Source: Psammoneis japonica (Eukaryota). Taken from it: DNA of 64,000 nucleotides. The stretch's first letter is position 1. Each line of letters starts with the position of its first letter. Location: assembly GCA_008632985.1 (NCBI GenBank), contig QPGO01000074.1, forward strand, positions 1 through 64,000, read 5' to 3'. The notes beneath the pieces were generated by a model, which was given only the letters and a program-made list of their open reading frames with translations, made no database searches and had not been told where the DNA came from. The translations under genes and the position numbers were made by a program. Positions 14,997 through 64,000 of the stretch are shown piece after piece.

Positions 14997-15960
14997 TGTA
15001 TATCTTATCTCTTCAACGTCGCGTTACTGTAATGAAATTCGTGAACAGACCATTGCCATTGCGCGCTGTGCTGTGCTGATGGTATGGTAGTCTAACTTCC
15101 GGCATCGTCAGTCCCACTCCATGTGCAGGGGTTTGGTTATGAGTCCGAAAAACCGGGTTTATTTGGGCAGATTTCTGGTACAAAAATCACGTAGAAAATT
15201 AGGCCTCTTACATGCCGTACGTACAGTGCCGGTGCTGGCAGTGGAGCAAGCAAGGTAGTGCGGTGCAGTAGATGGAGTCACCAGTGCCTGCTCTCTCTGC
15301 TAGCTGCTAGCAGCTGGGAGTAGCTCTCTATGGTAGAGAGCAGCAGCCAGCTAGCCAGCTGCTCTAGAGCAGCTCTGCTCTCTGCTAGAGTGGCCAGAGC
15401 AGAGAGCAGCAGAGGGGGCTCCCATCCCTGAAGCGGCTGTGATGTCATGTGCAGAATCGTGCAGGCTCTGGCACAAATGCGAGTGATGATCACTTGACCC
15501 CATTCTTTGTTTGTTACAACAGGCATTGTGGCTTTCTACAGAATCGTCATCCACCAGATTTCCGCTGCCCAATTGTTTTTTACGTGGCTGGGGGTGCAAA
15601 TGGGTTTGGCCAGCACACACAGCTTTGAGCAAACAGCCGTCATGGAACGAGGTCTTTTCCACGCTGGCAAGTGCAACATTCTTTCATTGCGAGATTGTTT
15701 GTCAACAATCACTTGCCACATTTTTCCTCACAAAAAGTTAATGAAGTTTTGGGTCTCAACACAGCTGCTCATGAAAACTTGCACAAAGTGCCCAGAAGAT
15801 GCGCGCGACTGCACATTTGAGAGTTTCTTCTTGGTCTGCATTGTCAGAGTCACTGTTGGCACCCAAAGAGTCTTGAAGCCTTGAATTGAGCTCATCAAGA
15901 TCACACTTTTCCTGAATGAAAACAGAGTCCAGATGTTCTTTGGCAACACTCCACTCTTCA

Positions 15961-18900
15961 TGACAGGATTTGAACAGGATTTGGGTGCGCGCGAAATGTC
16001 GCGCGCTGTTTAGTTTACCGCGCACAGTTTTGTGTGCTTTAGTTCCGCGCGTTCGCGCGCGATGTAGTTTGCTTTCGAGCCACAAGGCTCACAAGAATAA
16101 CAACAGTGGCCCGATTGTGCCGACTCACACGTCTTTCGGCTCCTGTGACGGTCTCTGAGTGGAGACTCATCTGCCATTTAGACAGCAGCAAGGAGTTGTT
16201 GTTTGAATTCTTGCCATTTGCCTTCATTTTCTGTCAGATTGACAGTCTTGCTCATTGTCAACCCATTGAGCAACCGCCATCGTCGTCCTTGATTTACCGA
16301 CGACGCTTTCAATTCTGCGTGGACCTCCGCATGTGTTCTACGTACATCGGCAAGTCTACGCGCATTCAATGCCAGGCATCGGCAGGAAGTTAACGTCACA
16401 GTCAAGTCTCCTTGCCGCTGGATGTCTGGATTGATCACACCACCTTTCATCACTGAAGACACACATTCAACGGTCACATCCAAGTCCATCCTTGATCCTC
16501 ATCCCTTGACACACCCATTCAACGGTTAACGGTCAAGAACCCTGCATGTTCAAGGATCTTCGTCGCTGAAGACATGCACACACACACATCTTCACGGCCA
16601 AGAACTTGTGCCCACTCTTTGGGCTGCGGCTTTGCTGCCACTCTACAAGCACACCGAGTCCATTGCACCTGATCTGCCCCGGACCACTGGTGCTCTGCAG
16701 TTCCACTGGGTCCACGAGGACGACTGTGAGAGCAAGCAGCCGTGATTGCAGCCTGCGTTGGGGCGAGGGTGTTTTTCCCGCGTTTGTTCGTTCGTCCACA
16801 GCGCCCAACGCCCACGTCAACTGGCCAGCCTGATCGGGAAATCCAACCGACATAAAATGAGAACGGTTCGGGGGTCTTGTCCACCTCTGGTCAGCTTGCC
16901 TGCAGGGGTTTACAACCCGCTGCTCCACTCGCAAGCAACCCAAAGTGCCGCCAGCTGCGGGTTCGGACGTGCCGGCACAACTCTACGGACCGGATGGGAA
17001 GTTTAGCACTTGACAACGAACGGGACAGCACAACCCGGCGACTTCTGATTTTAAGACAGTCCAAGATTTCAAGTCAAGTCTGGCTCAAGTCAAGTCTTTT
17101 TCAAGCCAAGTTCCAAGTCAAAACTCGAGTCAAGATCGCGCTCTAGATTGGATCCTGTCTTTTGTTTCTGCTGCACCGTCCTCCATCATGGTTCTCACGC
17201 GACAGCAACAAACCGAAAGCTTCAAATGCATTCCAGGCACTGTGCTCAATCAAGACGATGACAGCCCTCTTTGTTCTGCCCTGTCCATCAATGGGATTGA
17301 ATCGTGCGAGGAATTGTTCACGTTCTCACCCACCCAAATTGACGCCCTCACTCACAGAGACGGCGCCAATGCAGTGCCTTTGCCACGGACCCACAGAAAC
17401 CTCCTGGCAGCTTTGATCAGCTTCTACTTTGTCAAAGTTTGCAACGGTGATGATGTGACCAATGAACCCCAGTTGCTCACACCCGACGAATTTCGCAACT
17501 GCCGCCTTGGTCCGGACTGCTTGACCTCTCTGGCCACTGGCGCAGCACCCTCCGCACCTGTGCCGAGTCCCTTTCCATCCAAACCAGGTGAACCCAGTGC
17601 CATTTTGACACCAGCCTTGCACTGTGCCGCCACTCAGGTGTCCCCTGGAAGTGGTGTCAGTCGCGCCCCGCATGTCTTGACCAACCCGCCTGCAAGCAAC
17701 CTCGGCCCAGTGCAGGATTGCAGCCCTTGCACAGGCCCGCACTTCGAGACCAGTTGGGACACTCCACCCATGGCTTCCAAAGCTGCAGTCTTTGCACCCT
17801 GCAAACCACGTGCTGCCAACCTCCACGTGTTGACCGCTGTCACCCTTCACAGTCTTCATTTGGGAAGTGATGGAGATGACAACTTGCTTCTCGCATCTCC
17901 TGATGGGGAGCCTCCTTTTCCCATCATTGAATCTGTTCACAACAGTTCAACCGGTTCATCAGATGGGGAGTTCAGGACATCCAAGCAGCTTCATTGTCTT
18001 CGGATCCTCCAAGCATGCACCATGAGACCAGGCCTCCTGACTGGATGCTCCAAGTCTCGCACCTCGAGACTGGGCCTCCTGATTGGATGCCTCAAGTCTC
18101 GCACCTCGAGACTGGGCCTCCTGATTGGATGCCTCAAGTCTCGTGCCTTGAGACCAGGCCTCCTGACTGGATGCTCCAAGTCTCGTACCTCGAGACCAGG
18201 CCTCCTGATTGGATGCCTCAAGTCTCGTACCTCGAGACCAGGCCTCCTGATTGGATGCCTCAAGTCTCGTGCCTCGAGACTGGGCCTCCTGGTTGGATCC
18301 CCCAAGTCTCGCACCTCGAGACTGGGCCTCCTGATTGGATGCCCCAAGTCTCGTGCCTCGAGACCAGGTCTCCTGATTGGATGTCCCAAGTCTCGCACCT
18401 CGAGACCAGGCCTCCTGATTGGATGCCTCAAGTCTCGTGCCTCGAGACTGGGCCTCCTGATTGGATGCCCCAAGTGTCGCACATCGAGACTGGGCCTCCT
18501 GATCGGATGCCCCAAGTCTCGTGCCTTGAGACCAGGCCTCCCAACTGGACTCTCCACGTCTTGTGCCTCGAGACCGGGCCTCCCAATTGGATCCTCCACG
18601 TCTCACACCTCAAGACTCGGCCTCCGGATTGGATCCCCCAAGTCTCGCACCTCAAGACTTGGCCTCCTGATTGGATCCCCGAAGACTCGTGTCACAAGAC
18701 TGGCAAGTCCTTGTGGATCCCAGAAGTCTTGCAGCACGGGACTGGTTGCCCCAATCAGACATCTGCAGCCTTGCACCACAAGATGTCTTGCTCCAATCTG
18801 ATCCCCGAAGGCTTGCACCTTGAGACTCGTTTCTCCAATTGGATCAGTCTCTCAGGAGATGCAGCTGAGCTTGCAATCGGACTGGTGGAACACAAGACCA

Positions 18901-19667
18901 CCGCTTGTGCCTTTGAACTCATGCTTGCTCTGTTCCCCAAGTCGTGCAAACGCCATGCCACCCTGCACGAGCACTGCTCTGTTTTTCTGGCAGCAGCCCA
19001 GTGTGGCAACCGTCCCAAGAACCAACAGACAGCCATCAGTCTTCATGACCTTCGCTCAGGAAGTGAAGGTGATGTCAACTTGTTTGCATTGTCCTGCAAT
19101 GTTGCCCCGCCGTTCAACATTGTCAACCAGACCAAGCTTTGCTCCTTCCATTGCAAGTGCGGATGTGGAATCCCACAAGATCCCAAGTGTGCCTTGAGCT
19201 TTGAAAAGCACAACGGCATCTGCAATTGGGGAGACGCAGCTCATCTCAAGATGACACGCTTGGAGAATGCAGCGTTGCTCTCGGATCTTGATCCTTTCTT
19301 GTCTCCTCATGTTTTGGTGCTTTGACTCCAAAGTTCTTCAGTCAATCCGAAGTCGAATCTGTTTCTGTGACTCCTCAAGCAAACTGGGGAGTGACAGGAT
19401 TTGAACAGGATTTGGGTGCGCGCGAAATGTCGCGCGCTGTTTGGTTCACCGCGCACAGTTTTGTGTGCTTTGGTTCCGCGCGTTCACGTGCGATGTAGTT
19501 TGCTTTCGAACCACAAGGCTCACAAAAACAACAACAGCAGCCCGATCATGCCGACTCACACGTCTTTCGGCTCCTGCAACGGTCTCTGAGCAGAGACTCA
19601 TCTGCTGTTCAGACAGCAGTGAGGAGTTGTTGTTTGAATTCTTGCCATTTGCCTTCATTTTCTGTCA
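15961..19667 (+). mobile_element. Internally deleted Ty1/copia (CoDi-like) LTR retrotransposon
   Basis: 276-bp LTRs at 15961-16236 and 19392-19667 (TGACAG...CTGTCA); 5-bp TSD CTTCA; GGGGAG before the 3' LTR; gag-like start at 17188 (MVLTRQQQ...DDDSPL); pre-RT remnant KCGCGIPQDPKCAL...NGICNWGDA near 19155. Confidence 0.92.
18020..18850 (+). repeat. 42-bp tandem repeat, about 16 good plus about 4 degenerate units, inside the copia element
   Basis: Unit ACCTCGAGACTGGGCCTCCTGATTGGATGCCTCAAGTCTCGC; 14-aa periodicity in the overlapping ORFs. Confidence 0.95.
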
Positions 19668-19807
19668 CTTCAAGAGCCTCCTTCTTTGCTTCTCAATGCT
19701 CTTCCCCAACAAACTGTCATTTGGACAAACTGGCAAAATCAAGATCTTCAGGTTCCCATCCTTCAATGTCTTGTGTGCACTGCACTGAGGCACAGCAGAG
19801 CAAAGTG

Positions 19808-20206
19808 CAGACGCGTTCCAGCCCAGGTGGGAGCTCGTAGTGCTGACGTGTGACAACAATAATTTTTGTCATCCGTCGTATGTTTCGTACGTAGATTTCT
19901 ACGTGTGACATTTAAAAAAAATTGTCCATGCTCGCTGTTTTGCGAAGCCCCAGACGTTTTATATAACAAATTTATAGAAACAATAATGCGCCAGTTACAT
20001 TCTTCAATGTCTGAAGAATGTAACTGGCTAAGTAAAAAATGATGTACTTCAATCATGTGCGAATTTGTGCGTTCGCAAAATTGCCTCATTTTCTGTTGGC
20101 GATCATTGACATTTTTATTACCGTATAATTTTACTACGGAGCTCGCACGTAGAAGTCTACGGGCCCAATGTCACACGGATTCCCACTTACGTCTGGAACG
20201 CGTCTG
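19808..20206. mobile_element. MITE of about 400 bp, possibly Tc1/mariner-type
   Basis: Perfect inverted repeat (TG)CAGACGCGTTCCAG ... CTGGAACGCGTCTG(CA); AT-rich non-coding interior. Confidence 0.75.
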
Positions 20207-20599
20207 CATCACACTTGAGGAGAGCTTTTGAGAGCTTGGCGATGTCAGTCTTCAGAGTTTCATTTGGTGCTCTGCTTTGACAACATGGGTCATCTTTGTC
20301 TTCATGTGGCATGTGGCAGCAATTGCACTCTCACCTTGTGCCATCTTCACAGTGGCTCTGCGTTTCTTCTTGTCTGACAGTTGTTTGGAAGCACCCACTG
20401 CACCAGCAACTGCATCCTTTTGCTTGAAACCAGCAAGCATGCTCAACATCATTGTGTGCATTGCAGTGCTGACAGCATTTGCAGCACTGCCATTCACCTC
20501 TGCTTCAAAGCCATCAATCAAAGCTCCAAGTGGTTTCTCAATCATCTCTTTCAATTGCAAAAAGGGTCCTCCCTTCTTTGCTCTTCCCCCCCCCCTTGC

Positions 20600-21650
20600 T
20601 GGCCTTTGCCCTTGCTCTCTTTCCCAAGCTCACCCAAGCAAGCACTCTCTCTGCTGCCCAACTCGCCCTCCCCAGTGGTGTCTTCCTTGCCCATGTGGTG
20701 ACTTGCACCCTGACCTCCTTGGAAACCATGCTTTTTCTTGCTCCAAGATGCATGAGGGTCCTTTGTTGAGCCACATCCACAATGCTGTCTGCACCACACT
20801 TGAAGCCCTTGCCCTCTTTGCGGCTTGCGCCACTCTCGCTGACAAGAAGTCCACCTCAAGCCTGCAGGACTTCTCCCCAACCATTCTCTCAAGCACCCTG
20901 CTGATGCAGGTGCTCAACTTGCTCCAAGCTCTGCACCTCCCCATGCACACTCTGTGCACCAATGTGTTGCTGTTGATGCTCCAGCTCCCCCCCTGCTCCT
21001 CCCCATTCTGCACCTGGTTTTCCCACCCCTCCCAACCAACTTGCCAAGGCTCACCTCAGCAGCACTTGGGGCGAGCTTCTTGGATGCAGCACCTCATCTT
21101 CCACAGGCTCTTCCATCATTTCTGCCACAAACCAGAGTCAGGCCTTTTCCTTCTCCCTTTTGCCCTTGACCACCTTGGCAGAATGAGCTGCCAACTTCCG
21201 CACCTTTTTCCCCATGGCTTTTCTCACACAACACCTCCTCTTCTGTTCCACCACCTCTCCTCCCAAGCCCCCCTGGAATGATCCCACTGACTTTTTGAAC
21301 TCCACCAGTGCCTCCTTTGCAGCCTGCGCCAACTCCCCCCCCCCCCCCCCCNTCCTCTCTCTGATGAAGTTTCTTGCCCCCAGTCCAGTGTCTCGACTCT
21401 GGCGGGACACACCTCTCTCCCGACCATTTTGGCTCTTCCAATCACACCTCTGCCCCTCAATCTTGGGCCACCCAACTCTTGAGCCTCAACTTTGGTCTCG
21501 CCTTTTCCAATCACCTTGCCAACTGCCAGTCCTTCCTGGCTCGGCCTCCTGCCTGCCTTAAACCTTCACCCCTCCGTCTGTCCGCACCTCCGCCCCCCTT
21601 CTGCACCTCCCATCCTGCCTTGTTGTTCCTTCCGCCTTCCGCGCGCTCTC
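20600..21650 (+). mobile_element. Decayed 3' part of an RLE-clade (CRE-like) non-LTR retrotransposon
   Basis: Zn-knuckle CPCG...DLLGNHAFSC...HN, then KPAGLLP...KHPADA, VAVD and LLPFALDHLG across frameshifts, matching the CCHC + restriction-like endonuclease layout. Confidence 0.6.
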
Positions 21651-22320: not shown

Positions 22321-22365
22321 AAATGAGAGAGACATCAAGACCAAAAGCGTGCAAACTAGAGGCAT

Positions 22366-24132: not shown

Positions 24133-24134
24133 GG

Positions 24135-24746: not shown

Positions 24747-25290
24747 CATGGGGATTCAAACGGCAAGCGGTGAAAATGTCATGGCGAAGCAGAAAAAAAG
24801 TAAAATTATTGCTTTGTGGAGATTGGAGATTTGAACATTTGTGTGATGTGAAAATGCGGCGTTTTGCAGCACAGCCACCCAACCTGCTGGCGGCCCGAGC
24901 CTTTCCCGCGCTTTGGCGGTCCCACGCGCGCTCGGGATGAGCGCGCAAAAGACAAAAACTGCTCGGGAGCAAAAAACTCCTTTGGCCCAGTTTCCCTTCT
25001 TCCAGAGCTCATTGGAGTCATTTCTTGCACCTTCTTGAAGCACAGTGTTCCTCTGCACTGAGCAGGGCTCTAAACAGAGGCTGTGGTGGCAGCCCACCAC
25101 CACTGTGAGCAGGGCCCCCCTGACAATGTCACACCCACCAGGGACGCTCGTCACTCACTTTCCCAGAAAACTTGATCTCTTGATCAGAGAAATCACCCAA
25201 TGAAACAAAGTCACTCTCAATGACTGCTGAGGTCACCATCCAGCACAACTCCCTGCTTGATGACAGGAGACTGCAGAGCATTCGAGCGCA

Positions 25291-25580
25291 CAATTTCAGA
25301 TGAGCGTGCCCAGAGCATCTGTGCATGTGGCACTGGTCTGCTGTCTGCCCCCCAATGGCAGTGTGGCATGTCACAATGACATCACTGATGAAAGATGCAT
25401 GATGGCCTGACTGGCACAATCCACAATGCAAACAGCAACAGTTTTGGTGCAACACAAAATCCAACAAACAAGTGGCAGTTTGACAAGATTCCCTGTTTGC
25501 ACGACCCCACTTTTTCCAGAGCAAACCAGCTCAGAATTTTCACAACAGTGTTTTTGCAACACATCCACATTTTCATCAAC
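25291..25580 (+). repeat. LTR-like repeat homologous to 35651-35937
   Basis: Alignable over about 290 bp; one copy lies before gag, the other after an integrase. Confidence 0.7.
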
Positions 25581-25599
25581 CATCAGGTGCACAGGACAC

Positions 25600-28500
25600 A
25601 GCAACATTGCCCCTGCACAGTCAGTGAGCAAGGTTGCAAATCCATGAGAAACAAGGCTGCAACATGCTGGCAGGAGGACAGACAGCTGCAAAACCAACCA
25701 TGAAGAAGCGGTTCAACCACTGACTCCATTTGCATTTGGCATGCCCTGAAAAAAAAGAGCTTCAGAAGGGTGAGCACCAGATGCACAAGCTGTGCAACAA
25801 TCCTGCAGATCCAGACAGCTCCACATGTGAGCCGAGTTTGCCGCACTTTTCCATGGGAACATGTGAGGAGTGGCTGAACTTTGAGTGCAATGCCAAGCAC
25901 ATGTTCCAGGGACAAAATGACATTGCAGGACCAGCAAAGTTTTTGCTCATGTGCAGGCTTCTTGAGGTGATGCCCTGATGACATTTGAGAATGTTGCGGT
26001 GATGCTCAAAACACTGAGACTGATGTCACCTTCAAGAAGTGTGTGGCAAAGGTCATGCAGAGCGTCTTCCTGTGCATGTCTGTGACATCGCATGTGCAAG
26101 CTGGCCAATGTCAAGACCCTCAAGTGTGAAGCAAGGGCAGTTGAGATCAATGGCTGCATCTCTCAGTTTCTGCCAGTGATGAATGGTGGAGATGTGCCAG
26201 AGGCATTGCCTGATCATGAGCTGCATGACTTGCTCAAGTGCAGTGCACCAAACGCATGGCTGGTCATGCTGCAAGATTTGGACTGGCAGCTGGCACATGC
26301 TGTGGCCAAATTTGTCTCATTCTGCAAGCAAGTTGAGAACAGGCAAAGGATGTGGAAGGCATCCCAGACAAAAGAACATGACTGATGATTGCCAAGCACT
26401 GGAGCACCACATCAAGCATGTCAAGACATCACATGAGAGTGGTGGTTGCAGCAAGTCCAACCAGAAACCTCATGATGAGAAAGAGTCAAACTTCTTTGTT
26501 GAGAAGAAAGCAGAAACCCATGACTCCAATGCAAAGAAGAAGCACAAGGAATGTGAGGAGGAGCTCAAAGCTCAATCACTTCTGTGATCCACATGTCAGC
26601 AACTCTAAAGATGAGTCCAAAGCAGACCTTTGAAGAGGAGGCTGACACAACACTTGTGGCTTTAATGCATTGGATGAACATGTGAATGAAAATCTGTCAC
26701 AGCATTGCACTTGTGTTGTGGACCAACTCTGCAAGCATGTTAAAAAGACTCACTTTTTGACGCCTGTCTTGTTGACATCCATGAACACCATGCACAGCAA
26801 GGGCAAGACTTGAACAATTGAGGCACTGCTTGACAATGGCACCAGCAGCACTTTGCCAAATGAGCAACACTGCAAATGTCTGTGAAGCCATGCAAAGGCT
26901 GAAACACTTGTGCATCAAGTCCACGTGCACAGCAGAAAGTTGGGCAACTGTGATGTGATTGTTGGACATGACACTCTGGAGACACAGGACATCTACACAG
27001 CCTTCTCTAAACACAGATGATTGAGTGGCCTGCGGTCAATGGAGGAGTTCCAATGAGGCACACAGATGCTGTGGCAGAAACCTCCTTTTTCATTCAAGAT
27101 CCAGAGCTCTTGATGTTGAAAAGTGACCAAATTTCACTCATTTTGGATGCTGAGCACATGCTGGCATGCCTCAAGGACATGACACAAGGGGCAACAGGAC
27201 TCAATGGAGCTCAACAAGCAAAGCTGTTTGGCTCATTAAAGAGACATTAATCCCCATTTGATGGGACACCAGGACAGTGGAAAGGAGAACCCTGCCAAAC
27301 CCAGCTGAAGAAGGGCATGGAACCATGTCATGAACATCCACACAATGCACCTCATGCATGCAGAGCCACACTGTGCAAGGAAGCAGAGTGCCTTGCATGT
27401 CCATGTGTTCTCAAATGCATCGACCAATCCCAGTGGGCAGCTTCATTGTTTGTCACACAAAAGAAAGACTTGACAGTTGGTTTGTCAATGATTTCAGGGA
27501 GCTGAACAAAAGGACAAAGTGAGTCCCTTGTCCAATCCCTCATGTTCAAGATGCACTGCCAAAGCCAGAAGGCTTTAAGTGGGCTGCATCGTTGGATTAA
27601 AACATGGGCTGTTGTCATGCCCAGTTGGACAATGACAGCAAGAAGCTCTGTGCACTTATTTTCCCATGGGGAAAGTGCAAGATGCAGGCATTGCTGCCCA
27701 TGGGACAGTGCAATTCACCTGACAAATTTCAGGAGAAAATGTCAACCGCATTTGAGGATCTGTTCTTGTTCATGTGAACACATTTAGATGACCTTCTTGT
27801 TGTGATAAAAGACACCTGCTAAGATCCTCTCAACAAACTTGAAGAAGTCTTGTTGCAAGTCAAGAATGAAGGGCTGAAAGTCAACAATGAAGTCTCATTT
27901 CTGTCAGATCCAACTAGAACACTTGGGCCATTTGGTTGACTGAGAATGCATGCAACCAACACCCACCAAAGTTGAATTCATTGAGTGCATTGCAAAGCCT
28001 GCAAATGAGTGCAAACTCCACTCATTTGTGAGTGTGGTGAACTGCTGTTGCGATGCATGGCTCATTCCCTTGCAAGACTTGCAAGCAGGGCTGTCACCTG
28101 GAGCCAGACATCCATTGAAGTTGAGGCATTTGAGACTGTCAAACAAGCACTGTTTGAAAATGTCTCATTGGCACTCCCAGACATTGACAAACCTTTTGAG
28201 ACACATGCGATTCCTCTAAATGTCATCTTGGAACAGTGACATCACAAAATGACAAACCAGTTGTGCTCTGCAGAGCAGAAAGCTCAATGGTGCACAATTA
28301 AACCACACAACAATGGAGAGAGAATTGCTTGCCATTGTGAAGATGTTGAAAAATTTTGCACAATTCTTCTTGGTCAATGAATGGCAGCACATGCTGATTG
28401 CAAAAATCTTGCTTGTGTGGGGTGATCAACACCAAACACATGATGTGCTGGAGGTCAATGTGTGAAGAATGTGGCCCTGATTTGTGGTGTGTCAAAGACA

Positions 28501-52022: not shown

Positions 52023-52199
52023 CATCCAGCGCGGCGCCAGAGCCAGGCTCAGAGCGAGTTGTGATTAGTTTCCGTTTGCGCGCGCGCGCATCGGAAGGCA
52101 GTCGGTCTGTCCGTGTGACAAGGAAATAAAGGTGTTGCTTTAGGCCCTGGGGCCCTACAGCACAGTGCAGGGCCTCTCTGCCGGTCAACTAAAATGGAG

Positions 52200-55100
52200 C
52201 CAGATCTCCTTTGAGCTGCGAGATCAAGAAAGCAATGTTCAGAACATTTTGTGACTCACTGTGCTCTGAGAAAACAGCAAACACACTCTGCTTTTTTGTG
52301 CACAAATCTCAAGACAGTCTCGCGCAAGTCAGCTGTCGCTTCAACTCACAAGAAAATGCAGCCAAAGCCAACCCAGTTCAATTGTCAAAAGCACCTTGCA
52401 TTCCATGTGCCTCCATGTGGACTTCCACAGATGCTCGCTGATCTCTCTGGGCTGCAAAAGGACACATTTGTGTTGAGAGGGGGGTGGCATTTTTGGAGCT
52501 TCCACATTGACGAAGCACAAAGCACGCTGGTCACTCTGGCAAAGACATCTGGTGGTGACAGGCAAACATGTGGGCAGAGTCTAAAATGAAAGAGATTTTT
52601 CCAGCACTTGCTTTGAAACAAGAGAGCCAAGCATGGCCAAAAAGTGCTCCAGAATGGACTGACAAACAGCGGCGCATGAGCCATCGATGTTGTGACAACC
52701 AGGCACAGCAGCTGTTGCAAGCAACACTGCCTTTCTTCATTTCATGATGGACAGACTGCATGTCAAGCAGAAATTGAGCAGAGTTTCATCTTGTTGCAAC
52801 TCTCTGTGCCACATGTGAGAACACATTGCACAACAATGACAACACAAGCAGCACACCGTGAAGACCAGTTGCCACCTTCCTGCAAATTGCGCTGTGTGCA
52901 ACATCATTGTCAACTTTGGCTCTGATGTGTTTTGAGCAGCAATGGCAAAAACTCTGGGCTTTTGGCATCCCTGACAATGGCGCACCAGGCTTGGCATTGT
53001 TCAGCGAGTTTGTCAGAGATGACAGAAATGTCATTGACCCAGCAGTCTGTCAAAGTCAGAGACACTGTGTCATTCATGGATGCTCTTGGCATCCTCATTT
53101 GATGGACAGAGAGGAAAGCTGAAATGAGAAAAGGGGCAATGTTGGCAGCACCTGCTTCTTGGACCCAAGTTTGCACCATGATGCAACAGCCAACCAGCAC
53201 CCACTGCTTGCTGCTGTGAGAATCCAATCTGTGAGGGCATCATGGGTGCTCTCACTTCATTTTGTTTTTTCTTCCTGATGGTCAAATCATCATGTTTTTC
53301 TTCCCAATGGCCAAATCCAGGTGCATTGCAACATGCCCCTCTTGGCACCTGCACCACCACAACCAGAATCATGGCAAAGATGGAAGACTCAAGATCACAA
53401 AGAGCATGACTGAGATGGAGAGAAATTTGTGCACCCCATTTCTGCCTCCAAATTGCAATTCACCTGAGTGAGAGGAACATCTTTCACCTTTCAAAAGAAG
53501 AGTGAGGCCATTGGTTTCAGCTCCATTGGGTCTTGTGCAGAGCTGGCAAAAGCTCTTGGTGTTCCCAGCTTGTGTTGCACATCTTTTTTCTTGTGGGAGC
53601 TGGAGTGAGATCATGACAAATCATTGCATGAGAAAAGCACGAGTGGGCAATTTGCACCCATCAAGCATCATGTTCTATGAAGCCCCAGTTGTGCTGTTCA
53701 CAAGTCACTTCTGTGGTCTCTTCTCAGAGCAGCAGCAACTCAGACCTCATGTGTTCTTAACAAGGTTCTTGTGTTGACATTTGACATCTTGCAACATCTG
53801 TTTGCATCTGCAACAACCCACCAATGATGATGACAACAAAACAGTCACATGGCACTGGCAGTGTGACTGCCAACACATGACAAACTGATTCTGCAGCTGG
53901 CGCACGACCTTCCACTGAAGCACCATCATTGACCACCAGCCAGCAGTCCACTCACTCAATTGCTGCCTTCACACAAAAAAGTGCCTTGTCTAAAAGTGCA
54001 AACAAGTCTTGGAAAAGAACAACAGGAGCTTTTCCACCCAGCCTGGACTGGACCCAGTCAACCTCATGCACTTTGCAACATGGACGAGCCTTCTTGCTGT
54101 GCTCTGCTGCTGCAAAGTGCACTGCCCACATCTCAGCACAAATGCCCAAAGGATCACACTTCCTCTTGGCAGATGATGTGATTTGCAACTCAAGACAATC
54201 CCAAAGAGCTGCGCTGCCTGACATCATCATGACAGTGTCCCTCATCATTGTCTTGCCATGAATGAGTTGCAAGAGCATGTTGGCAATCTCTGCAGCTGTT
54301 CCAAGCAAGCATCAATCATGATTTCTTGCCACAAGCCAGCACCCTCTATTTCAAACACCTCACAGTCCACAAAACAAATGACTGTTTCACAGAGGGACCC
54401 CATGAATGCCCAGACCAAACAAAACTGGCACGTGGTGTGTCCCTGTGGTTGATTGCTTGGATTGTGTGTTTTGTCTTTCCACCAGAGGTGTGGTTCCATT
54501 GCTCAGAGCTGAATCAACCAAGTCAAGCTTGCACTTTTTTGCACAAATGCAGCAAATCTCCAGTGCACAACAAGTTGCACTGTCAATGCAGAGAAGCCAG
54601 AGCACCACACATGACATTGTCATCCACTGACCCACCAAACAACAGTGCGCTTGACTCCTCTTTGGCATCAATGGCTTGAACTGCACCGCTGGGAGGCAAA
54701 GCACCATGGGCAGCTTGGCATCTTTCTCATCATCACAAAGAGTCAATTCTGAGTCCAACAAAATTTCCAGTTCTTGTGCCATCACCTTTTCCTTGGCTGC
54801 GCGCAACATGAAAAAAAATCTGTCCAAGAATTGAGTTGTTGGGAAACTTTTTCCAATCCTTGAGAGCCTCCAATTCAGTCTCTCATGATTGATTGGCACA
54901 CACTTCAACCCCAGTTTGGACATGGACTGTGGCAAGTCTGCAGCACTGATGGCTCCCCACAGACAAGCCTTCAAGCATTGGACATGGTGACCAAGTCACA
55001 GACCGTCCAATCTTTGCCTGCAGGAGTGTGCAGAGAGCATGCTGTGCATGCAACACACAAGCCATCAGCATGTTCTGCAGCACTCTTGATGTGTTCCATC

Positions 55101-55720
55101 TAAAACACCACACTAAAAAGGAAAGCTCATGTGTGCAAAGAGAATGGCTCCAGCAAAACAGCACTGCAACACCCCCTGCTTTGGCAACTTGTCTTCTCTT
55201 GACATTTTTTCTCAAGACGGTTCTCTGCACTCTGAAGACAAAATTGACCTTTTTTTAATGCCTCTTTTCCTGAATCTTTTAGAAACCAGGCTTTTGGCAA
55301 GCACAAAGCAAGTCCTGACATTTGACATGCAAACCCAATCTACAAGCATCAGTCAGAAGGTCAATGAAGATCATGGTGAAAACAGCGGGACAAAAGAATG
55401 TTGCATCATGGTGCAAGCAATTGGGGGCGCCAGAAGCAGAGCACCACCGCTGTCGTCTGAGAAAAATGTGCCGTTTGAGAATCCACAGTGCCGTGTGCTT
55501 GCCGGCACCACAAGCAATTCTGCACTGGGAATTTTGCTGTGTTGCTGTGACAGTTTTTCAAGTTGGTGTGGCATTTTCATGGTTGATTCTCAAGTGGGAC
55601 ATCAAGCTGGTTTCTGGCGCAATGTTCTTCCAAGAAAGAGCAGCAGGGAGGAGGAAGCAAAGGGTGCACATGAGAAGCACACAGCTCTGGGGCAGAAGAC
55701 AATCCAGACAATGGGAAGCC
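52200..55720. other. TpA/CpG-depleted decayed block, probably TE-derived, family not recognised
   Basis: Composition only; no diagnostic motif recognised. Confidence 0.5.
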
Positions 55721-56033
55721 ACTCTTAAGAGGAGTCGCTTTACAAAGTGTTTGCTCTCTTGCAAGAGGACAGACAGGTCGCGGAAGAGGACAGACCGGTC
55801 ATTGGCACGTTTCGAATTGTCTCGCGCCAGAATTCGCGAATCATCATCAATCTCAAAATCGTGACAGCAAACATCCGCGGTCGCGTGGATCGTGGAGAGA
55901 GCCCACACTGCATCAAGAGGAGTTGCGGAATCGCATTGTTCCGATTGCATAAGCACCGCTGCTACTGTCGAAACGATTGCCGAGAGCCAAACGCTACAAT
56001 ACCAACGGCTGGTTGACAAAACAACTAAGCATC

Positions 56034-58199: not shown

Positions 58200-60500
58200 C
58201 GTAGTTGCTTGTGCTGCCAACACCCCAATGAAGAGCCAGACACAACCAACGCTGAGGCGTGGTCTGCCAATGCTGGTGCTTGTGCAGTGCCTGATGCCAT
58301 GCAACCTGCAGTTGGCACTCTCACACACACTGACTGCTGTTGCCATTTGTTGAGCCCTTGCCTTCCTCTTTTTCTTCCGCACAATGAACAAACCTTCCTG
58401 CAGGGAGTGTGCACTCTTTCAGCACAGGAAATGAGTTCCCACAGCCTTTTTTCAACTTGAGGGATTTTTCTGCCCTTTTTTCCTCCATGTCAAGGGTTTC
58501 TGTTTTCCTCCCTTGTGTTGGGTTCACATGTCAGGGGCTTGGCATCTCAAGCGAGTTGTCCCCAAAACCCACGGTTCCCTTGAGTTGGTGGTGTCCCACA
58601 GTGGGTCACACCATGCCAGACATTTTTTGTTTCATGACAACTCTTGATGTCAAATGATGTTGTCACTGCCACAGTGTGAAGCGCTCTTCTCACTGCTCTC
58701 ACCCTGGCTGCTGATGCAACTGCCGTGCAGTCAGACCATGACGACCACACTGTCATGACATGATGATGTGCCAGACAATGTTGCTGGCCTGTTCCAGCTC
58801 CAGGTGATGTGCACAGGTTTAATTCCCATCACTGGCCCATTTTTCATTTGGCTCAATGAACTCCTTCAAAATCTTGTTTTTCCCAAATCGAAGGGGAGTG
58901 CACACAAAACTCATGTTTTTTGGTGTGCACTCACCTTTCAATTTTTGAAGCGATCAAATTTGAAGGAGTTCAATGTGCCAAACTGCACAGAAAATGGGCC
59001 TTGCACATGATGGATTTCTAATCACCTGGGGCTGGAAAATGCCTGCTTTCACAGCGTCAAATGTTTGTTGCTTGCTGTGGAAGTCTGGTGCTGCAGAAGA
59101 CATCAGCGCCACACTGTCAGATTTTTTCTTGCTCCACAAGGATGCATCATTCTGTGTCACTGCCATCAGTGTCAGTGCTGTCAGATTTTGTTGTCCATTG
59201 ACTGCACAGCCCGTCCAATCTCAGCAGGGCCAGCACAGCACAATGTCATTTTGCTTGTGACTTGAGATGCCAGACATTTGGGCTGATCAAATGGTGCGTT
59301 GCAGTCAACAAAATTCCCAATTGTCAGAAATGACAGCACAAACATGCCTTCTCATCAATGCAGCAACATTTGGGATGGCATCAAACAGTGGCCATGCAGG
59401 CCAATGTGCCTCTGTGGTGCTGGCTTGCATGTTGCCAATGTCAACGCCAATGTTGTCAAGCTCATTGTCTGGCAACCCATCAAATTTCATTTTGTTGCTG
59501 TGCACAGAAACACTGCTGCCATCTGTTGGCATGTTTGCGGCAGCAACAGATGACATTGTTCCCATGCTGTTGTCCTCCTCATGTTGCGCCGATTAAAAAG
59601 ACTGGTCATCACACCACTGTGGCTCCACTTCTCTTCATTTTCTTGGGGCAGCTTTGACAAGCAAAGAAGTGGCTTGTGCAACTTTGCAGCCAGAGCCAGT
59701 GGCTTTTGCTTCTCATGTGTGCTTGGGAGATGATTGCCTTCCACAGACAGGACACACGGCAGCACCCATGTCATCTGCATCTTCTCCTTCAACTGGCTGC
59801 ATGCAACACAATGCACTGACAAGAAGCAATCCATCGCCAACCCACTCTTCACATTGTTGAGGTGACAAAGCTTCAAAGGAAGCAATGTGGCAAAGACATG
59901 TGTCTTTTTTGTTGCTCAAACTGCATCGGAACAGAACCGGCACAACTTCGGTGTCTTTTTGAAGTCTTGACACACCACCTTGTGTCCGCTTGGCAGCTCT
60001 GAAAAACTGAACTCTTCACTCTTGCTGCCACAAACACATTGAAAGGGCTCTGCTCCTCTCACGTGGAATGTGTTTCTGTCATGAAGTGGTGACACAATGC
60101 GTGACAACATGGAGAGGGCTGAAAAATCTTGCCGGCTTCCCCCCAGCACATCTCATGGCACACACTGCATTCCATGGTGCAGTTTGAACAACACCCTTCA
60201 GCACGGAGCTGCTGAAGTCATGCAGTGAGGAGTTGCAAATGGTTTGGTGTGACGGGGATTGCCGTGGGGGCAGCAACATGTCAACACCTTGTGGTGGGTG
60301 TCAAAAATGAGGTGCAAATGAAATTCAACTTTTTGCTTTTTTACAAACAAAAGCATCGCGCACTGGTGGCAAGACGGTTGGTGCCGCAAATCACAAAATC
60401 ACCCACCTTGTGCAGCATGACAAGGCAAATGACCCGTTTTTTGACCGTTGGGTCATGCAAGCCATTTGAACTCAAATTTGAACACGCTTGCGCGAGCTTG
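58200..60500. other. TpA/CpG-depleted decayed block, family not recognised
   Basis: Composition only. Confidence 0.5.
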
Positions 60501-60585
60501 GTGAGCAAATGACAGTTTGTTGCTCTTTCTCTTGCTTGTTTTCACTCATTCTTCCGAAGAGCAACAAAGAGCAACAAGCCGCTAG

Positions 60586-62950
60586 ATGGCTTTTGACACT
60601 GTCGACGTGGCGCAGGACACCTCCGCTGCAGCTTCCCATTGTTTGCAGGAAGAACTTTTGTTCAGTCCATTGTGGATGCGCAACAGCAGCAAAATGCAGG
60701 TCAAGGGGCCCAAAACGCCCCAAATGCCAACGACCCGGCTCCACCGCAAGGAGGAGCTGCAGCAGCCGCTGCGGCGGTCCCAAACGCTCCGCCACCGCCT
60801 CCGCCTCAAGTTCCGGTGCCTCCGTTGGCACTGCAAGCAGCAGGAGCCTTTGCACAGCCACCGCCACCGGGTGCCCAAGCTGTGCCGGCGGCGCCGCCGG
60901 TCATTTCGACTTGTCGTGATTTTTACCTTGCTGCCGCTGACGACCCACATCGGGGGGCATGCAACGATTCGATGCTGGATTTCGTGGTCCCGGTTCAGGG
61001 ACCTTCCAGATGCAACCCCGGAATGCCACATGGGCAGGTTGCAGTGGCGTCAAGTCATGATCAGCCGATGGCAGTCATCACACACTGTCGAGAGGCTGGT
61101 GCAGCGGACGAAGGACAGATTCAAGTCCTCCACCGCATCACCACTTATCCGACAACCGTGGTTGGGCCCGCCGAACCGTGGGATGGTGAGACGCATGCAA
61201 CAGCGGGTGATCCAACCCATGGACAGTTCACTCTGGTCGAATTTGGAGACGACTCGTTCAACCCAGCACAGCAGGGGACTGGGGTGCCGACTCATGCTGC
61301 ACTCCTGGAGCATGTCACCAACAATGCGGACAGCCTGCATCCGCATCTGGCTGAGAATGCACAAAATTCGGAGGTCGTGCGAACTGGGAATGCAGTGCAT
61401 GTGCCATTTGAGTTTGTGCCACTCTTGTTGGCACAACCCTTGTGCCCAAAACAAGCCCATCAGCGGGTGCACGGCGCCGCCACAGCAGCTGGCAAAGTGG
61501 CTGCCATTCGACCACTGCTCGATTTTCTTCGCGTCGCCTGCTGTGCCATTGCCAACAACCAAATGGTGTCTGTTGTGACACGACCTTGGCCTGTCATGAC
61601 ACGCCCCCCCAATGAAGCCCTCATTCAATTCTTCGATGCCAAGATGTCGCGTGACATCCCTGGGAGACTGGGCCATGCGCCACCCACTGCGCAGCACTTC
61701 CAGCCGGTCATGCAAGCCATTGAAGGGCTCACCACTGAGCAACGCCAACTTCGACTTGATGCTGCAGCACGTCAGCAAGCGGCTGCCCGGGGCAAGGCAC
61801 CCAACAAATTTTGGGGACCTTTCGGTGTCACCAAGCTTGTGAATTGGTGCCACGTCCTCAACAAGACGGCACTGCCGCCTGTGTGGGCCGCACTTGCCGC
61901 AGCGCCAAAGACAGGTCACCTGGCAGTTGTCCAAAATGCAATTGACGAGCAACGCCAGGCAATGGCCATCCATTTCGACGCACCTGTTGCCGTCAGTCTC
62001 GTCACCAAGCTCGCACAGCTCAAATTTGCTGGTCACAATCAGGACAAGCCTGCCCAAGGCATCACCCTCTTCCAATTTGGGATCACTGCACCAGACAGCG
62101 CCGAACAGATTGCCTGCCACAAGGCCATGCATGTGCACATTCATGGCGGCACTGCGGCCCCGTCCCTCCAGGACACTCAAATCCTGGAAGCTCCAGACAA
62201 GGCGCTCATGGCAACGACAATGCAAGCCGCCCAGCAGTCACACGATGGATGCCATCTGGTGCTTTCTGCTTTGCTTGGGGCCAACCATCCAGTCGTCCAG
62301 TGGCTCACCCGTCAACGTCAAGACATGGACCGGTGCACCAATGAATTGGCAGTGCAGGCCACTTGGCACCCAAACCTTCCGGCGGACTTTCAACGCTGTG
62401 CGCAGATTGAAGTTCGCCATTGGTTCAAGGCTCAAGAAGCCTCACTCCACCCGTCACCATTCGCACCCTTCAACGTTGTGTTTGAAGCAGCTAAAGGAAT
62501 CATCCACTGGCGTCCGCATTTGCCTGCCAACACGCAAGCTGCCAACCCCAGTTCTGTGCTGGGGGCCGCACCGGCTCCAGCATCTCAACGCCAACCTGCC
62601 AACAACACGGCCCCTGCCAGCCAAGCTGCAGGAAGCAACAGCGCAGCCCGCAATCCCTCCTGCGACAACCGCTTTGCCACGCTCCGTGACCGCCCCAACG
62701 TCAGGTCACGTGATGTCAAAAACTGATGTGCAAGGGACAACATCGACCTCCCCAAAGATGCCCAAGGTCGCCCTCGTTGCTTCCCCTGCCATTGCAAAGG
62801 GCAATGCAACACCAACTGTGGCTTGTCCCATGATCATCGCAATGACCACACAGAAGACGAGCAGGCCACCCTTCTCACCTGGGGTGAGGAGAACTGGAAG
62901 ACCGAACAGGTCTTTGGCAACGGCCCAAGTTCGGGGACTTGGAGCCAAGA
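60586..62950 (+). mobile_element. gag-like ORF1, probably of a tyrosine-recombinase (DIRS/Ngaro-like) retroelement, truncated
   Basis: 695-aa ORF continues past TGA(62724) into the terminal knuckle CFPCHCKGQCNTNCGLSHDH; no pol follows. Family call is from memory. Confidence 0.5.
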
Positions 62951-62980
62951 GCCTTCACCCATCACACATGGCATGAGACC

Positions 62981-64000
62981 ATGATGGCAGCTGGGACGAC
63001 CAAAAGTGATGAGTGGCTTGCTCCAATCAAGGGTCGTCTTCAAGAAACAGCAGGAGGAGACAAGTGGGAGGAGGAGCGTTGGACAGATTTCATTGAGGAA
63101 GCATTGTGGTCCCTGCACGAGAATGATGTCGTTGACGGAGACACGATTCGCACCGCCGAGGGCCTTGTCAAGTGCGGAGTACGAACCAAGAAGCATCTGA
63201 TTGCAATGGCCGGAAAGCCTCCCGACGATGAAAAATTGTCGAGAAAGCTTGAGGCGAAAGGCGTGTCTCTCATCATCTGTGCCATGTTGTTCAATGAGCA
63301 CGTCCATGTGAATCGAGATGGAAAGTCTGACTGCTGGCATTGTGCATGTTGAACATGAGTCAAACATGCTGAACTGTTGCTTGCACTTCTGTCCCAAACT
63401 AATGCTTCTTGTCAGTGGTGCAAGAAAACATGTTTCGTTGTTAGATGATTTTATTCAACCTTTCTCATTTTCAATTTTGGTTTGTTCTTAGACTTTCATG
63501 TCGAAGGCTCATCGAGTGCTGTTGAGGGACTCACACTTGAGCCCAAGCAAGAGCTCCATGATCCGACCAAGGATCGCAGCACAACATCTGTGCCAGATTT
63601 TTTCACGCCCACAAAGAGCAACAAGCCCAGGGACATGTTGCTGAATCGCCTTTTGGAATTAGAAGGAAAAGGAGATGGAAAACAAACACCTGATGTCGCT
63701 CCCTTTCTTGCCATTGTTCAATCGAGTGGTTGCGGGAAGACCCGATCAGTTCTGGAGCTAGCTGAGGAACAAAGAGTTGTGCACTTGCTTTGTTCTAACA
63801 TCAAGGGAGGTCTGCACTCTCCAAAGGTTGTCACTGATTTTATCAAAAACATCAAAAAGGCCGGTGCAACCGAATTTCGTGAACGACGAGCTGCCACATT
63901 TCTTCAATGTGTCAAGAAGTGCTCCGGCAAGTGCAATGCAGGACAAGAGTTGTTCTCCGCTCAATTTGAGGACGGGAGATTCGCCAATTTCTACGACGAG
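62981..64000 (+). pseudogene. Crinkler-like P-loop NTPase gene, partly TpA-converted, runs off the window
   Basis: Frame open from about 63492 to the end: APFLAIVQSSGCGKTRSVLEL...RVVHLLC (Walker A at about 63720-63745); upstream exon-like ORF at 62981-63320. Confidence 0.6.

Follow-up and report, generated by a model that had tools for sequence, protein, structure and literature searches.

What has stripped long stretches of this diatom chromosome of the dinucleotide TA? Across the window, by which we mean the whole 64-kb stretch of DNA analysed, 1-kb sliding windows and exact TA positions delimit seven TA-poor blocks (Table 1) that total 29,928 nt and contain 99 TA against about 1,040 predicted, block by block, from mononucleotide frequencies. 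The initial annotation had listed seven TA-poor, TG/CA-rich blocks, and all of them were found, with coordinates that agree to within 300 nt or less. It had seen no TA from 25073 to 26605, which is true: the longest gap spans 25071-26606, and 1,535 nt without TA has a chance of about exp(-57), given a TA frequency of 1273/34072 outside the blocks. Its estimate by eye of about 40 TA in 25000-38500 becomes 46 on exact count. Further TA-free runs occupy 20188-21559 (1,371 nt), 61146-62492 (1,346 nt) and 18228-19496 (1,268 nt). Observed/expected (o/e) ratios for TG and CA are 1.4-2.0 within blocks (1.97 and 1.76, respectively, in the main block, B3, where GC is 0.48) versus 1.16 (TG) and 1.12 (CA) outside; TA o/e in the remaining window is 0.56.

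Block borders are sharp, resolved to tens of bases. The final TA gaps stop at 38530, 52190/52582 and 58202/58820, and directly outside them TA recurs every 5-70 nt. Both the sharp borders and the normal TA of neighbouring genes were seen as first described. The effect had been called domain-wide; it is instead element-wise, sparing the genes between blocks and also a 350-nt island between B1 and B2. This island, which lies between the arms of a 16-nt inverted repeat without mismatches (19806-19821 / 20193-20208), may be a MITE-like element that inserted later and escaped hypermutation, and its presence within depleted sequence indicates that the process was not simply regional or continuous. 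B7 may continue past the window end.

Table 1. Coordinates of blocks, elements and control genes in the window; TA is given as observed/expected counts.
Feature	Coordinates	Strand	Description
Tandem array	6154..13421	+	four gene copies of ~1.9 kb, 92-97% identical; not hypermutated
B1	15582..19838	.	TA 24/231; CpG o/e 0.65; GC 0.53
Non-autonomous LTR retrotransposon	15961..19667	+	LTR pair, TG...CA ends, target-site duplication
TA-normal island	19839..20188	.	350 nt, between B1 and B2
B2	20189..21559	.	TA 0/67; CpG o/e 0.19
B3 (main block)	24808..38530	.	TA 46/927; 87 CG (o/e 0.11)
LTR-like segment	25265..25599	+	repeated at 35625-35958
Degraded Ty3/gypsy-type pol	27011..29387	+	protease, RT, RNase H, integrase; stops and frameshifts
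Second pol copy	34411..35521	+	5'-truncated, integrase part; paralogue of 28441-29221
B4 (small)	40986..41921	.	TA 4/44; CpG o/e 0.50
Host eEF1A gene	43812..45101	-	between blocks; TA normal
B5 (small)	45853..46275	.	TA 0/25
B6	52191..55950	.	TA 12/257; CpG o/e 0.25
B7	58203..63660	.	TA 13/305; CpG o/e 0.55; GC 0.53
709-codon open frame in B7	60597..62723	+	two homologues (46% and 36% identity), function unknown

Mobile DNA that entered a diatom chromosome long ago and is now dead makes up the blocks; the host eEF1A gene between them assigns the window to diatoms. Among the inserted elements are at least one Ty3/gypsy family, present twice, a small LTR element and an element encoding an unknown protein; no coding remnant is recognisable in B6. 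The small LTR element is nested within the TA-poor older repeat that makes up B1. Its LTRs, 276 bp each (15961-16236 and 19392-19667), are bounded by a 5-bp target-site duplication, CTTCA (15956-15960 and 19668-19672), and a 42-bp tandem array lies inside the element (18024-18690). The LTRs differ at 21 positions, all transitions with no transversions, and 17 of the 21 fall in TA/TG/CA dinucleotides; by class there are six TG/CA double differences, five cases of TA versus TG or CA, two CpG-type differences and two others. The 12 visible ancestral TA sites provide 24 site-copies, and 17 of these (71%) have mutated, compared with 2 of 42 CpG site-copies (5%) and 2 of about 420 other site-copies. 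Because both LTRs of one insertion differ at TA-derived sites, the TpA mutation post-dates insertion.

Coding remnants can be read codon by codon. In the B3 pol none of 14 conserved Tyr codons is kept (five are now TGY and six CAY) and 2 of 12 conserved Arg survive (seven are now TGN/CAN), with Phe retained at 12 of 14 positions, Asp at 11 of 13 and Trp at 7 of 8. Further changes of conserved codons, Leu to CCA (three), Ile to ATG (two) and Val to GCA (one), fit TpA to TpG/CpA conversion. In the B7 open frame, the five Tyr common to both homologues have become four Cys and one Trp, and Arg 14/23, Phe 10/14 and Trp 4/4 are retained; pol and this frame together keep 0 of 19 conserved Tyr codons, 15 of them having become TGY or CAY. 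The two pol copies share 74% identity in bases, or 86% once bases are coded as purine/pyrimidine, and show 43 TG/CA double differences versus 46 transversions; for the pair of LTR-like segments, also in B3, the figures are 77%, 92%, 18 and 13. Control gene duplicates show 0, 1, 2 and 7 such double differences versus 2, 38, 71 and 145 transversions. That the tandem genes of Table 1 escaped hypermutation means that duplication alone has no triggering effect.

Are intact relatives of these elements equally TA-poor? They are not: across 80 related loci from metagenomes the median TA o/e is about 0.73, and 77 of the 80 reach at least 0.49. RT fragments free of Tyr make up 13 of 150 homologues; they lie in assemblies (ENA, JGI and Logan) of other samples. 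Substitutions were polarised in a related 24-copy family on metagenome contigs rather than in this genome. Conversion of TA to TG/CA is graded among these copies, from 5% to 75% per copy, with other A/T sites at 1-6%. In the three heaviest copies (L079, 74 of 99 TA converted; L076, 51 of 70; L068, 56 of 88), A>G change affects 182 of 505 A preceded by T (36%), and only 2 to 3% of those preceded by A (22/728), C (16/548) or G (14/623), so that TA>TG/CA exceeds other A:T>G:C changes 12- to 16-fold, an excess for which the initial annotation had proposed to look. After A, the rate is 3.0% in heavy copies and 2.8% in light ones. The choice of outcome is specific to the copy (L079 and L076 agree at 23 sites and differ at 22), and the sense strand in four copies carries 119 TG versus 100 CA. 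Strand-coordinated runs of outcomes were absent in nine copies (z -1.8 to +1.1), unlike the clusters left by processive single-strand deaminases such as APOBECs. The family also shows a preference for T-A-Y (0.197 and 0.193) over T-A-R (0.085 and 0.079), which predicts YTAR among surviving TA. In the window, YTAR accounts for 52 of 99 surviving TA in blocks versus 208 of 1,280 outside (odds ratio 5.7, p=4e-15), and RTAY for 4 of 99 versus 350 of 1,280.

The LTR pair, the Tyr codons and the polarised counts thus bear out what had first been proposed, a change of TpA to TpG/CpA on either strand of mobile DNA after its insertion. None of the three outcomes that the initial annotation had named as refuting it was seen: intact relatives are not TA-poor, TA>TG/CA is in excess, and public reads assembled separately carry the sequence. 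On either strand, the A of TpA undergoes an A:T>G:C transition at a rate well over 100 times that of other sites and close to saturation; copies were mutated separately with 5'-T-A-Y preferred, and neither adjacent genes nor the 97%-identical tandem copies were affected. A TpA-specific hypermutation process acting after insertion is very probably responsible. Its most likely agent would be a TadA/ADAT2-like adenine deaminase producing inosine in DNA, our best guess being adenine deamination at 5'-T-A-(Y), and we infer that such an enzyme would be directed to foreign or heterochromatic DNA. Inosine would be read as G in the next replication, giving A>G, and the result would be irreversible inactivation of mobile elements in the manner of RIP, with the chemistry reversed. 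We consider this explanation as a whole, hypermutation of inserted mobile DNA by a directed deaminase of this kind, to be reasonably probable; adenine deamination as the chemistry is more tentative, falling a little short of an even chance. Statements about defence, silenced chromatin or timing (sexual versus vegetative, for example) would likewise be what we infer.

TpA reads the same on both strands, which makes A>G and T>C chemistry indistinguishable from sequence and all counts equally compatible with T>C. A TET/JBP-type dioxygenase or another enzyme could modify the T of 5'-R-T-A in silenced elements to a 5hmU/5fU-like base that mispairs with G, yielding T>C and the same TpA-specific post-insertion hypermutation; the T-A-Y preference is R-T-A on the opposite strand. 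The base 5hmU pairs chiefly with A. In dinoflagellates, a SAR lineage like diatoms, a TET/JBP enzyme is described as making TE-enriched 5hmU that aids silencing (PMC11572971), and a TE-directed non-cytosine modification of this sort offers a possible route to T>C. That paper presents an epigenetic mark; its main text does not contain the word TpA, and its available text reports neither a mutational footprint nor T>C decay of marked elements, whereas a footprint is what is seen here. We regard thymine chemistry as unlikely.

The blocks have lost CpG as well, strongly in B2, B3 and B6 (o/e 0.11-0.25) and moderately in B1, B4, B5 and B7 (0.47-0.65), against 1.01 outside. Summed over all blocks, deficits of TA (-941) and CG (-1,270), 2,211 together, match surpluses of TG (+1,104) and CA (+1,150), 2,254 together. 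The initial annotation was right that TpA loss contributes to the TG/CA surplus, but it had set CpG decay aside and missed the depletion; CpG decay supplies about half the excess, and TpA loss runs independently alongside. The two losses are uncorrelated over 21 metagenome copies (r=-0.21), and in the LTR pair CpG decay is about 15 times slower per site than TpA loss. This decay makes methylation and T:G repair plausible in the blocks, and with them error-prone patch repair, in which a polymerase-eta-like enzyme, recruited when 5mC is deaminated or a base is excised in methylated TEs, would introduce errors at A:T pairs, much as happens during phase 2 of somatic hypermutation in antibody genes. 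The A>G errors of polymerase eta fall at WA motifs. ApA is one of these, but A>G after A stands at 3.0% against 36% after T; this, the lack of correlation, the contrast between TA and CpG sites in the LTR pair (71% versus 5%) and the lack of transversions among its 21 differences leave patch repair disfavoured, and we think it very unlikely.

Adenosines might instead have been edited before integration, by an ADAR/ADAT-type A-to-I activity on retrotransposon RNA, with the cDNA copy fixed on retrotransposition. The recognisable elements here are indeed retrotransposons; to our knowledge, ADARs are restricted to metazoans. A 5' U/T preference is shared with RNA adenosine deaminases, ADAR favouring an upstream U, according to the available text of a preprint (10.64898/2026.01.13.699255). 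RNA editing is contradicted by the LTR pair: the LTRs share one template and are identical at the start, yet 17 TA-derived positions differ. Edited sense RNA would yield TG only, and so the near-equal CA outcomes on the sense strand (5 TGY versus 6 CAY; 119 versus 100) also count against it, making it highly improbable. That no mutation process acted, the elements being TA-poor on arrival through foreign composition or losing TA by selection, could appeal to the mild under-representation of TA everywhere (o/e 0.56 in the remaining window), but is scarcely credible when conserved Tyr codons have become Cys or His in broken reading frames, intact relatives have a TA o/e of about 0.73 and selection for TA loss cannot operate on dead elements while wrecking their genes; GC-biased conversion would lack TpA specificity, and GC is not raised in B3. 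Equally hard to credit is an artefact of sequencing, base-calling or assembly limited to modified DNA: the stretch is present in one sample only, with library type not on record, but Logan contigs of a public run, a separate assembly built from 31-letter words and drawn from a single sample, probably the same one as the window assembly, match the window over 21452-34692 and 37361-38593, each contig showing 0-8 differences, at a depth over blocks of about 60-70, like the flanking gene, while Tyr-free RT fragments occur in assemblies of other samples, graded copies are present in metagenomes and an artefact would not yield the LTR and paralogue patterns or mixed TG/CA outcomes.

Post-insertion TpA hypermutation resembles several known systems in part. 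Like RIP in Neurospora and other fungi, it is a hypermutation by transitions at specific dinucleotides in mobile DNA that has integrated, and it ruins reading frames and leaves blocks of skewed composition with sharp bounds. RIP is premeiotic and involves a DNMT-like protein. It changes C:G to T:A at CpA and thereby creates TpA, the opposite of the TpA loss seen here, where GC is raised or unchanged; RIP also requires duplicated sequence, and four near-identical tandem gene copies are intact here. The decay of 5-methylcytosine at CpG in methylated transposons likewise ends in TG/CA, and operates here too, but cannot remove TpA. A-to-I editing by ADAR, ADAT2-ADAT3 or TadA shares A>G change with U/T directly 5' of the A (U33-A34 in the tRNA targets); the substrates of those enzymes are RNA, unlike the integrated DNA changed here on both strands. 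APOBEC3 editing of retroelements is also deaminase hypermutation that becomes genomically fixed, but APOBEC3 acts before integration, changing C to U in minus-strand cDNA so that the resulting G>A is strand-specific; here A:T>G:C affects both strands of DNA already integrated, with no strand-coordinated runs.

The closest counterpart is in the chlorarachniophyte Bigelowiella natans, where two viral inserts acquired 231 de novo mutations, of which 230 were A>G or T>C, all at TpA (Mettrop et al., bioRxiv 10.64898/2026.01.13.699255). With this 2026 preprint a process of this kind is no longer undescribed and the initial statement that no eukaryotic system was known is superseded; we found no literature report of TpA hypermutation in diatoms. 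As far as the available text of the preprint goes, both cases have TpA-restricted A:T>G:C change to TpG or CpA on either strand, confined in B. natans to integrated foreign DNA with the remaining genome normal; neither depends on duplication (the NCLDV insert is single-copy), reverse-transcriptase and DDE domains are over-represented among the genes depleted of TpA there, as mobile DNA is affected here, and an ADAT2-like deaminase is proposed there as candidate enzyme. The differences, within the same limits, are that the host here is a diatom (Stramenopiles) rather than a rhizarian, that the recognisable targets are LTR retrotransposon remnants rather than NCLDV and virophage inserts, that loss is near saturation (TA o/e 0.00-0.10 versus 0.45 in the NCLDV region) with CpG decay overlaid, and that a historical footprint alone is seen here, whereas the B. 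natans mutations were caught as they arose; the T-A-Y preference and YTAR survivors have no mention in that account. With the signature present in a diatom and one other marine alga, a little-known DNA-editing process may be widespread among marine protists.

The seven TA-depleted blocks listed in the table, 29,928 nt in all, have a TpA observed/expected ratio (o/e) of 0.00-0.10, against 0.56 in the remaining 34,072 nt of the window. Every block proposed in the initial annotation was confirmed by counts in 1-kb windows and by exact TA positions, block edges show a transition within tens of bases, as sharp as had been described, and genes between the blocks are, as stated there, TA-normal (o/e 0.4-0.8). 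A stretch reported to lack TA altogether proved exact, with one TA at 25071 and the next at 26606 (chance about exp(-57)), and an estimate by eye of about 40 TA in 25000-38500 compares with an exact count of 46. Direction and dinucleotide context of the footprint had also been read correctly: CpA and TpG are enriched in the blocks while TpA falls to an o/e of 0.0-0.1. The explanation of the TG/CA surplus holds in part, since TA loss does contribute to it, but a depletion of CpG had been overlooked. CpG o/e is 0.11-0.25 in B2, B3 and B6 (0.11 in B3 itself), 0.47-0.65 in B1, B4, B5 and B7, and 1.01 outside. With non-block o/e as the baseline, the blocks have a deficit of 941 TA and 1,270 CG (2,211 together) and a surplus of 1,104 TG and 1,150 CA (2,254 together). 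The dinucleotides lost from the blocks turned into TG and CA, with CpG decay contributing roughly half of that excess.

TA-depleted blocks of the window and the mobile-element features recognised within them
Feature	Position	Strand	Remarks
Block B1	15582-19838
Block B2	20189-21559
Block B3	24808-38530
Block B4	40986-41921
Block B5	45853-46275
Block B6	52191-55950
Block B7	58203-63660
LTR element, 3.7 kb	15961-19667		276-bp LTRs ending TG...CA; CTTCA target-site duplication on each side
Tandem repeat, 42 bp (14 codons), 15.9 copies	18024-18690		Inside the LTR element
Degraded Ty3/gypsy pol	27011-29387	+	In B3
Second, partial gypsy pol copy	34411-35521	+	In B3
Open frame, 709 codons, Ala/Pro-rich	60597-62723		In B7; two homologues of unknown function

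Mobile content of the blocks consists of the gypsy pol sequences, the LTR element, and the open frame in B7, which probably encodes an element-borne protein. Homologues of that frame, P0271 and P0272 (730 and 810 aa, from Logan and ENA), share a conserved C-terminal Cys/His-rich motif that is absent from the window copy. The tandem repeat lies in long open frames of both strands, whose length is due in part to missing TAA and TAG. Pfam searches returned only a sub-threshold RT_RNaseH match for six-frame translations of 25000-38550 and nothing above cut-off for 147 stop-to-stop frames of at least 90 aa drawn from all blocks; by the same searches on block translations, no element was recognisable in B2, B4, B5 or B6. 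Recoding to purines and pyrimidines lifted the identity of known pairs to 86%, 92% and 98%, and in a self-comparison so recoded no further LTR pair rose above the background, which lay at about 75%.

The two LTRs of the 3.7-kb element, identical at integration, now differ at 21 positions, and 21/21 are transitions: six TG/CA double changes, five cases of TA versus TG or CA, two CpG-type changes, and two others. Seventeen of the 21 fall within TA, TG or CA dinucleotides. The pair has 12 visible TA sites, or 24 site-copies, of which 17 (71%) are mutated, compared with 2/42 site-copies for CpG and 2 of about 420 (about 0.5%) for all others. Coding decay has the same signature. At positions of pol with at least 60% agreement among at least five homologues, conserved Tyr is kept in 0/14 cases, the codons now being TGY (five), CAY (six), TGG, CCA and TTC (one each). 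Other conserved residues are largely kept (Phe 12/14, Asp 11/13, Trp 7/8, Met 4/4), and Arg is kept in 2/12, with seven now TGN or CAN. Three changes of Leu to CCA, two of Ile to ATG, and one of Val to GCA are those expected from loss of TA in CTA, ATA and GTA. In the B7 frame, Tyr common to both homologues is kept in 0/5 cases (four now Cys, one Trp), alongside Arg 14/23, Phe 10/14 and Trp 4/4; because Tyr is lost while Arg is largely kept, CpG loss is not required for TA loss. Paralogous copies within B3 show 43 and 18 TG/CA double differences versus 46 and 13 transversions; for four duplicates lying outside the blocks and used as controls, the counts are 0, 1, 2 and 7 versus 2, 38, 71 and 145. 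TA loss is mutational, and it took place after insertion.

The TA-free sequence is no artefact, as contigs assembled from reads reproduce the window at the depth of a flanking gene. One public sample contains the stretch. Logan contigs of its main run have a word depth of about 60-70, equal to that of the flanking gene, match 21452-34692 and 37361-38593 with 0-8 differences per contig, and place B3 mostly at single-copy depth. This sample is probably the window's own source, so the reads demonstrably carry the sequence but do not represent an independent isolate. Window and contigs differ at 25 or more places, and the 14 listed, from 24880 to 38885, are these: four of TA versus CA or TG, two that make up one CA-to-TG double change, three CpG-type, and five others. 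Two local irregularities were seen. The single N of the window, at 21352, falls inside the TA-free B2, and near it a contig from sequencing run X1 has a 3-nt insertion (21506), with skips listed at 21185-21443. At the edge of B3, a perfect 153-bp direct repeat occupies 24135-24287 and 24595-24747, and contigs from X1 and a second run, X2, connect 24129 to 24747, omitting 617 nt, which represents either a haplotype length variant or a collapsed duplication.

Relatives of the gypsy element are found in environmental sequence. Thirteen of 150 reverse transcriptase (RT) homologues are Cys/His-rich fragments, ten of them traced to ENA, JGI and Logan assemblies, and eleven are entirely without Tyr (P0127, P0132, P0140, P0157, P0187, P0196, P0202, P0211, P0230, P0238 and P0264). 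Tyr-free predicted proteins with raised Cys and His make a simple database marker for TA-free DNA. In metagenome contigs, 605 stretches gave a match and 565 of them were confirmed. The best 80 were retained, a choice that favours intact copies; their TA o/e is 0.25-1.18 (median about 0.73), and at least 0.49 in 77/80. The superfamily is not natively TA-poor. The window matched none of these 80 loci at the DNA level, and its own element copies have no close outgroup.

Twenty-four of the 80 loci form a family with at least 80% identity over at least 1 kb to one locus, L015, and substitutions in each copy were scored against the family's majority consensus. Between 5% and 75% of consensus TA sites have been converted to TG or CA per copy, from 5/99 in L015 to 56/88, 51/70 and 74/99 in the loci L068, L076 and L079, with transitions of 1-6% at other A/T sites and 8-41% at CpG. 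In the three heaviest copies A became G at 182/505 sites (36%) after T, 22/728 (3.0%) after A, 16/548 after C and 14/623 after G, and the target site is TpA rather than WA. Outcomes are shared by heavy copies at chance level only (for example 23 same, 22 different), so the copies were hit independently, and runs of TG versus CA along copies show no strand coordination (nine copies, z -1.82 to +1.08). The borders of hypermutation are invisible in these contigs because the contigs are transposable element throughout.

The base that follows also matters. In 21 copies of the family, three near-duplicates having been removed, the A of T-A-n is changed at 162/822 sites where n is C, 108/559 where it is T, 54/637 where it is A, and 73/928 where it is G. 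Given such a T-A-Y preference, the TA that survive are expected to be YTAR, and in the window's blocks 52/99 surviving TA are YTAR versus 208/1,280 outside (odds ratio 5.7, p=4e-15), while RTAY makes up 4/99 versus 350/1,280. The match indicates the same specificity in the window and in an unrelated metagenome family.

Outside the blocks, the sole strongly conserved gene of the window is eEF1A (43812-45101, minus strand), whose best named relatives, at 82-91% identity, are from the diatoms Pseudictyota dubia, Nitzschia, Odontella and Pseudo-nitzschia; by this one gene the window is taken to be part of a diatom chromosome. Pfam searches with 16 long ORFs found only EF-hand, GLUG, eEF1A and a weak HROB match, all in host genes. 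The four gene copies of a tandem set at 6291-13421, each about 1.9 kb long, are 92-97% identical, and two more diverged copies (72-84%) lie at 1947-4250; despite the repetition, this array (1947-13421) has normal TA and CpG, and its ORFs have no Pfam match. An inverted pair, 4802-6169 and 50184-51547 (1.37 kb, 80% identical, no long ORF), has the window's highest TA o/e (0.66-0.84) and is a repeat without hypermutation. The 3' part (40229-40694) of a GLUG-motif gene (38969-40708) recurs at 48185-48648 and 48957-49338 with 77% identity, within or after an ORF at 46829-48619, a local gene-family duplication between blocks. A TA-normal island of 350 nt (19839-20188) separates two depleted blocks. 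It is flanked by the arms of a perfect 16-nt inverted repeat (span 19806-20208) and has more inverted repeats inside, but a target-site duplication was not seen. It resembles a small foldback or MITE-like insertion, which would have arrived later than the hypermutation or escaped it. Together with the graded copies of the metagenome family, the island suggests that the process acts in episodes or picks out particular elements, and is not a constant effect on the region.

Several known processes can be set against this footprint. Native composition, selection and GC-biased conversion are rejected by the coding decay, by the TA-normal relatives, and by a GC content of only 0.48 in B3. RNA hyper-editing by ADAR or ADAT, fixed through retrotransposition, would leave identical changes in both LTRs and A>G on the sense strand only; the LTRs differ at TA-derived sites and TG outcomes about equal CA, so editing before integration is rejected. 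Fungal RIP, a premeiotic process with a RID/Masc1-type cytosine methyltransferase, changes C:G to T:A at CpA, enriching TpA, and is triggered by duplication; here TpA is destroyed, the opposite direction, and the four tandem gene copies are untouched, so RIP is rejected as well. Polymerase eta has a WA motif, giving A>G at TpA and ApA; repair of that kind would share the TpA target, but the ApA rate in the metagenome family is less than a tenth of that at TpA, and this reading too is rejected. Decay driven by 5-methylcytosine does resemble part of the finding, in the CpG depletion of B3 and the conserved Arg codons turned to TGN or CAN, but it does not cause the TpA loss: the LTRs largely keep their CpG (o/e 1.1-1.2), as does B7, and in the metagenome family CpG decay (12% in heavy versus 14% in light copies) shows no correlation with TA loss (r=-0.21, 21 copies). 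Taken together, the data establish a TpA-specific, copy-by-copy, post-insertion A:T>G:C process in mobile DNA, one that depends neither on CpG decay nor on duplication.

The initial annotation knew of no described eukaryotic system of this kind, but one was reported in 2026 for Bigelowiella natans. In the available portion of that mutation-accumulation study (10.64898/2026.01.13.699255), two integrated viral regions take 231/302 new mutations, 230/231 of them A>G or T>C and all at TpA, at about 1000x the background rate and in only some lines; RT and DDE domains are enriched in 324 TpA-depleted genes, and the authors propose an ADAT2-like deaminase. Our data agree in being almost wholly A:T>G:C transitions (the LTR pair, and TpA versus 2-3% elsewhere in the metagenome family), in their limitation to TpA becoming TpG or CpA by strand with no excess after A, C or G, and in a footprint that lies in integrated mobile DNA beside normal host genes, B2, B4, B5 and B6 being blocks without an identified element. 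The B. natans mutations arose de novo, whereas here there is the footprint alone, seen in the LTR pair, with a few TA/CA and TA/TG differences and one CA/TG between window and read contigs. We found no literature report of TpA loss in diatom transposons, preprint supplements, which could bear on other taxa, lying outside the search. This is the first diatom case found of a process described in one other alga.

Judged from the footprint, adenine deamination would be the most economical chemistry: an enzyme directed to foreign or silenced DNA would turn adenine into inosine at 5'-T-A-(Y) sites of either strand. Adenosine deaminases of tRNA and RNA, too, act on an A directly preceded by T. The B. 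natans preprint, in its available portion, likewise notes that RNA adenosine deaminases favour T/U before the edited A (10.64898/2026.01.13.699255). Because TpA is palindromic, A>G and T>C chemistry are inseparable by sequence, and a thymine modification at TpA giving T>C may act instead; a dinoflagellate TET/JBP enzyme places 5hmU on transposable elements, according to the part of that report available (PMC11572971). Whether by a DNA adenine deaminase or a thymine modifier, we hold with about equal belief and doubt that a dedicated DNA-editing defence erasing TpA (5'-T-A-Y) from integrated mobile and viral DNA occurs widely among SAR protists (diatoms, chlorarachniophytes and the hosts of the graded metagenomic copies), working copy by copy and independently of cytosine methylation and duplication, as a counterpart of RIP with opposite chemistry.

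New here are the LTR-pair proof of action on integrated retrotransposons, the near-saturation, the T-A-Y preference, and TA loss that does not depend on CpG decay, together with evidence that TpA erasure is common in environmental protist DNA. Blocks free of TA, predicted proteins free of Tyr, copies that differ by TG/CA doubles, and surviving TA in a YTAR context are simple genome-wide markers that permit a survey of any assembly or metagenome, and correlation with deaminase or dioxygenase gene content could reveal the enzyme; a natural editor of A:T to G:C in DNA would be of interest for base editing. Annotators should bear in mind that long open frames in TA-free DNA, those of this window among them, arise partly because two of the three stop codons are lost. 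Few primary producers are more abundant than diatoms, and if the process acts in both diatoms and a chlorarachniophyte, it would be a general protist means of killing integrated mobile and viral DNA, rather than a curiosity of one alga.
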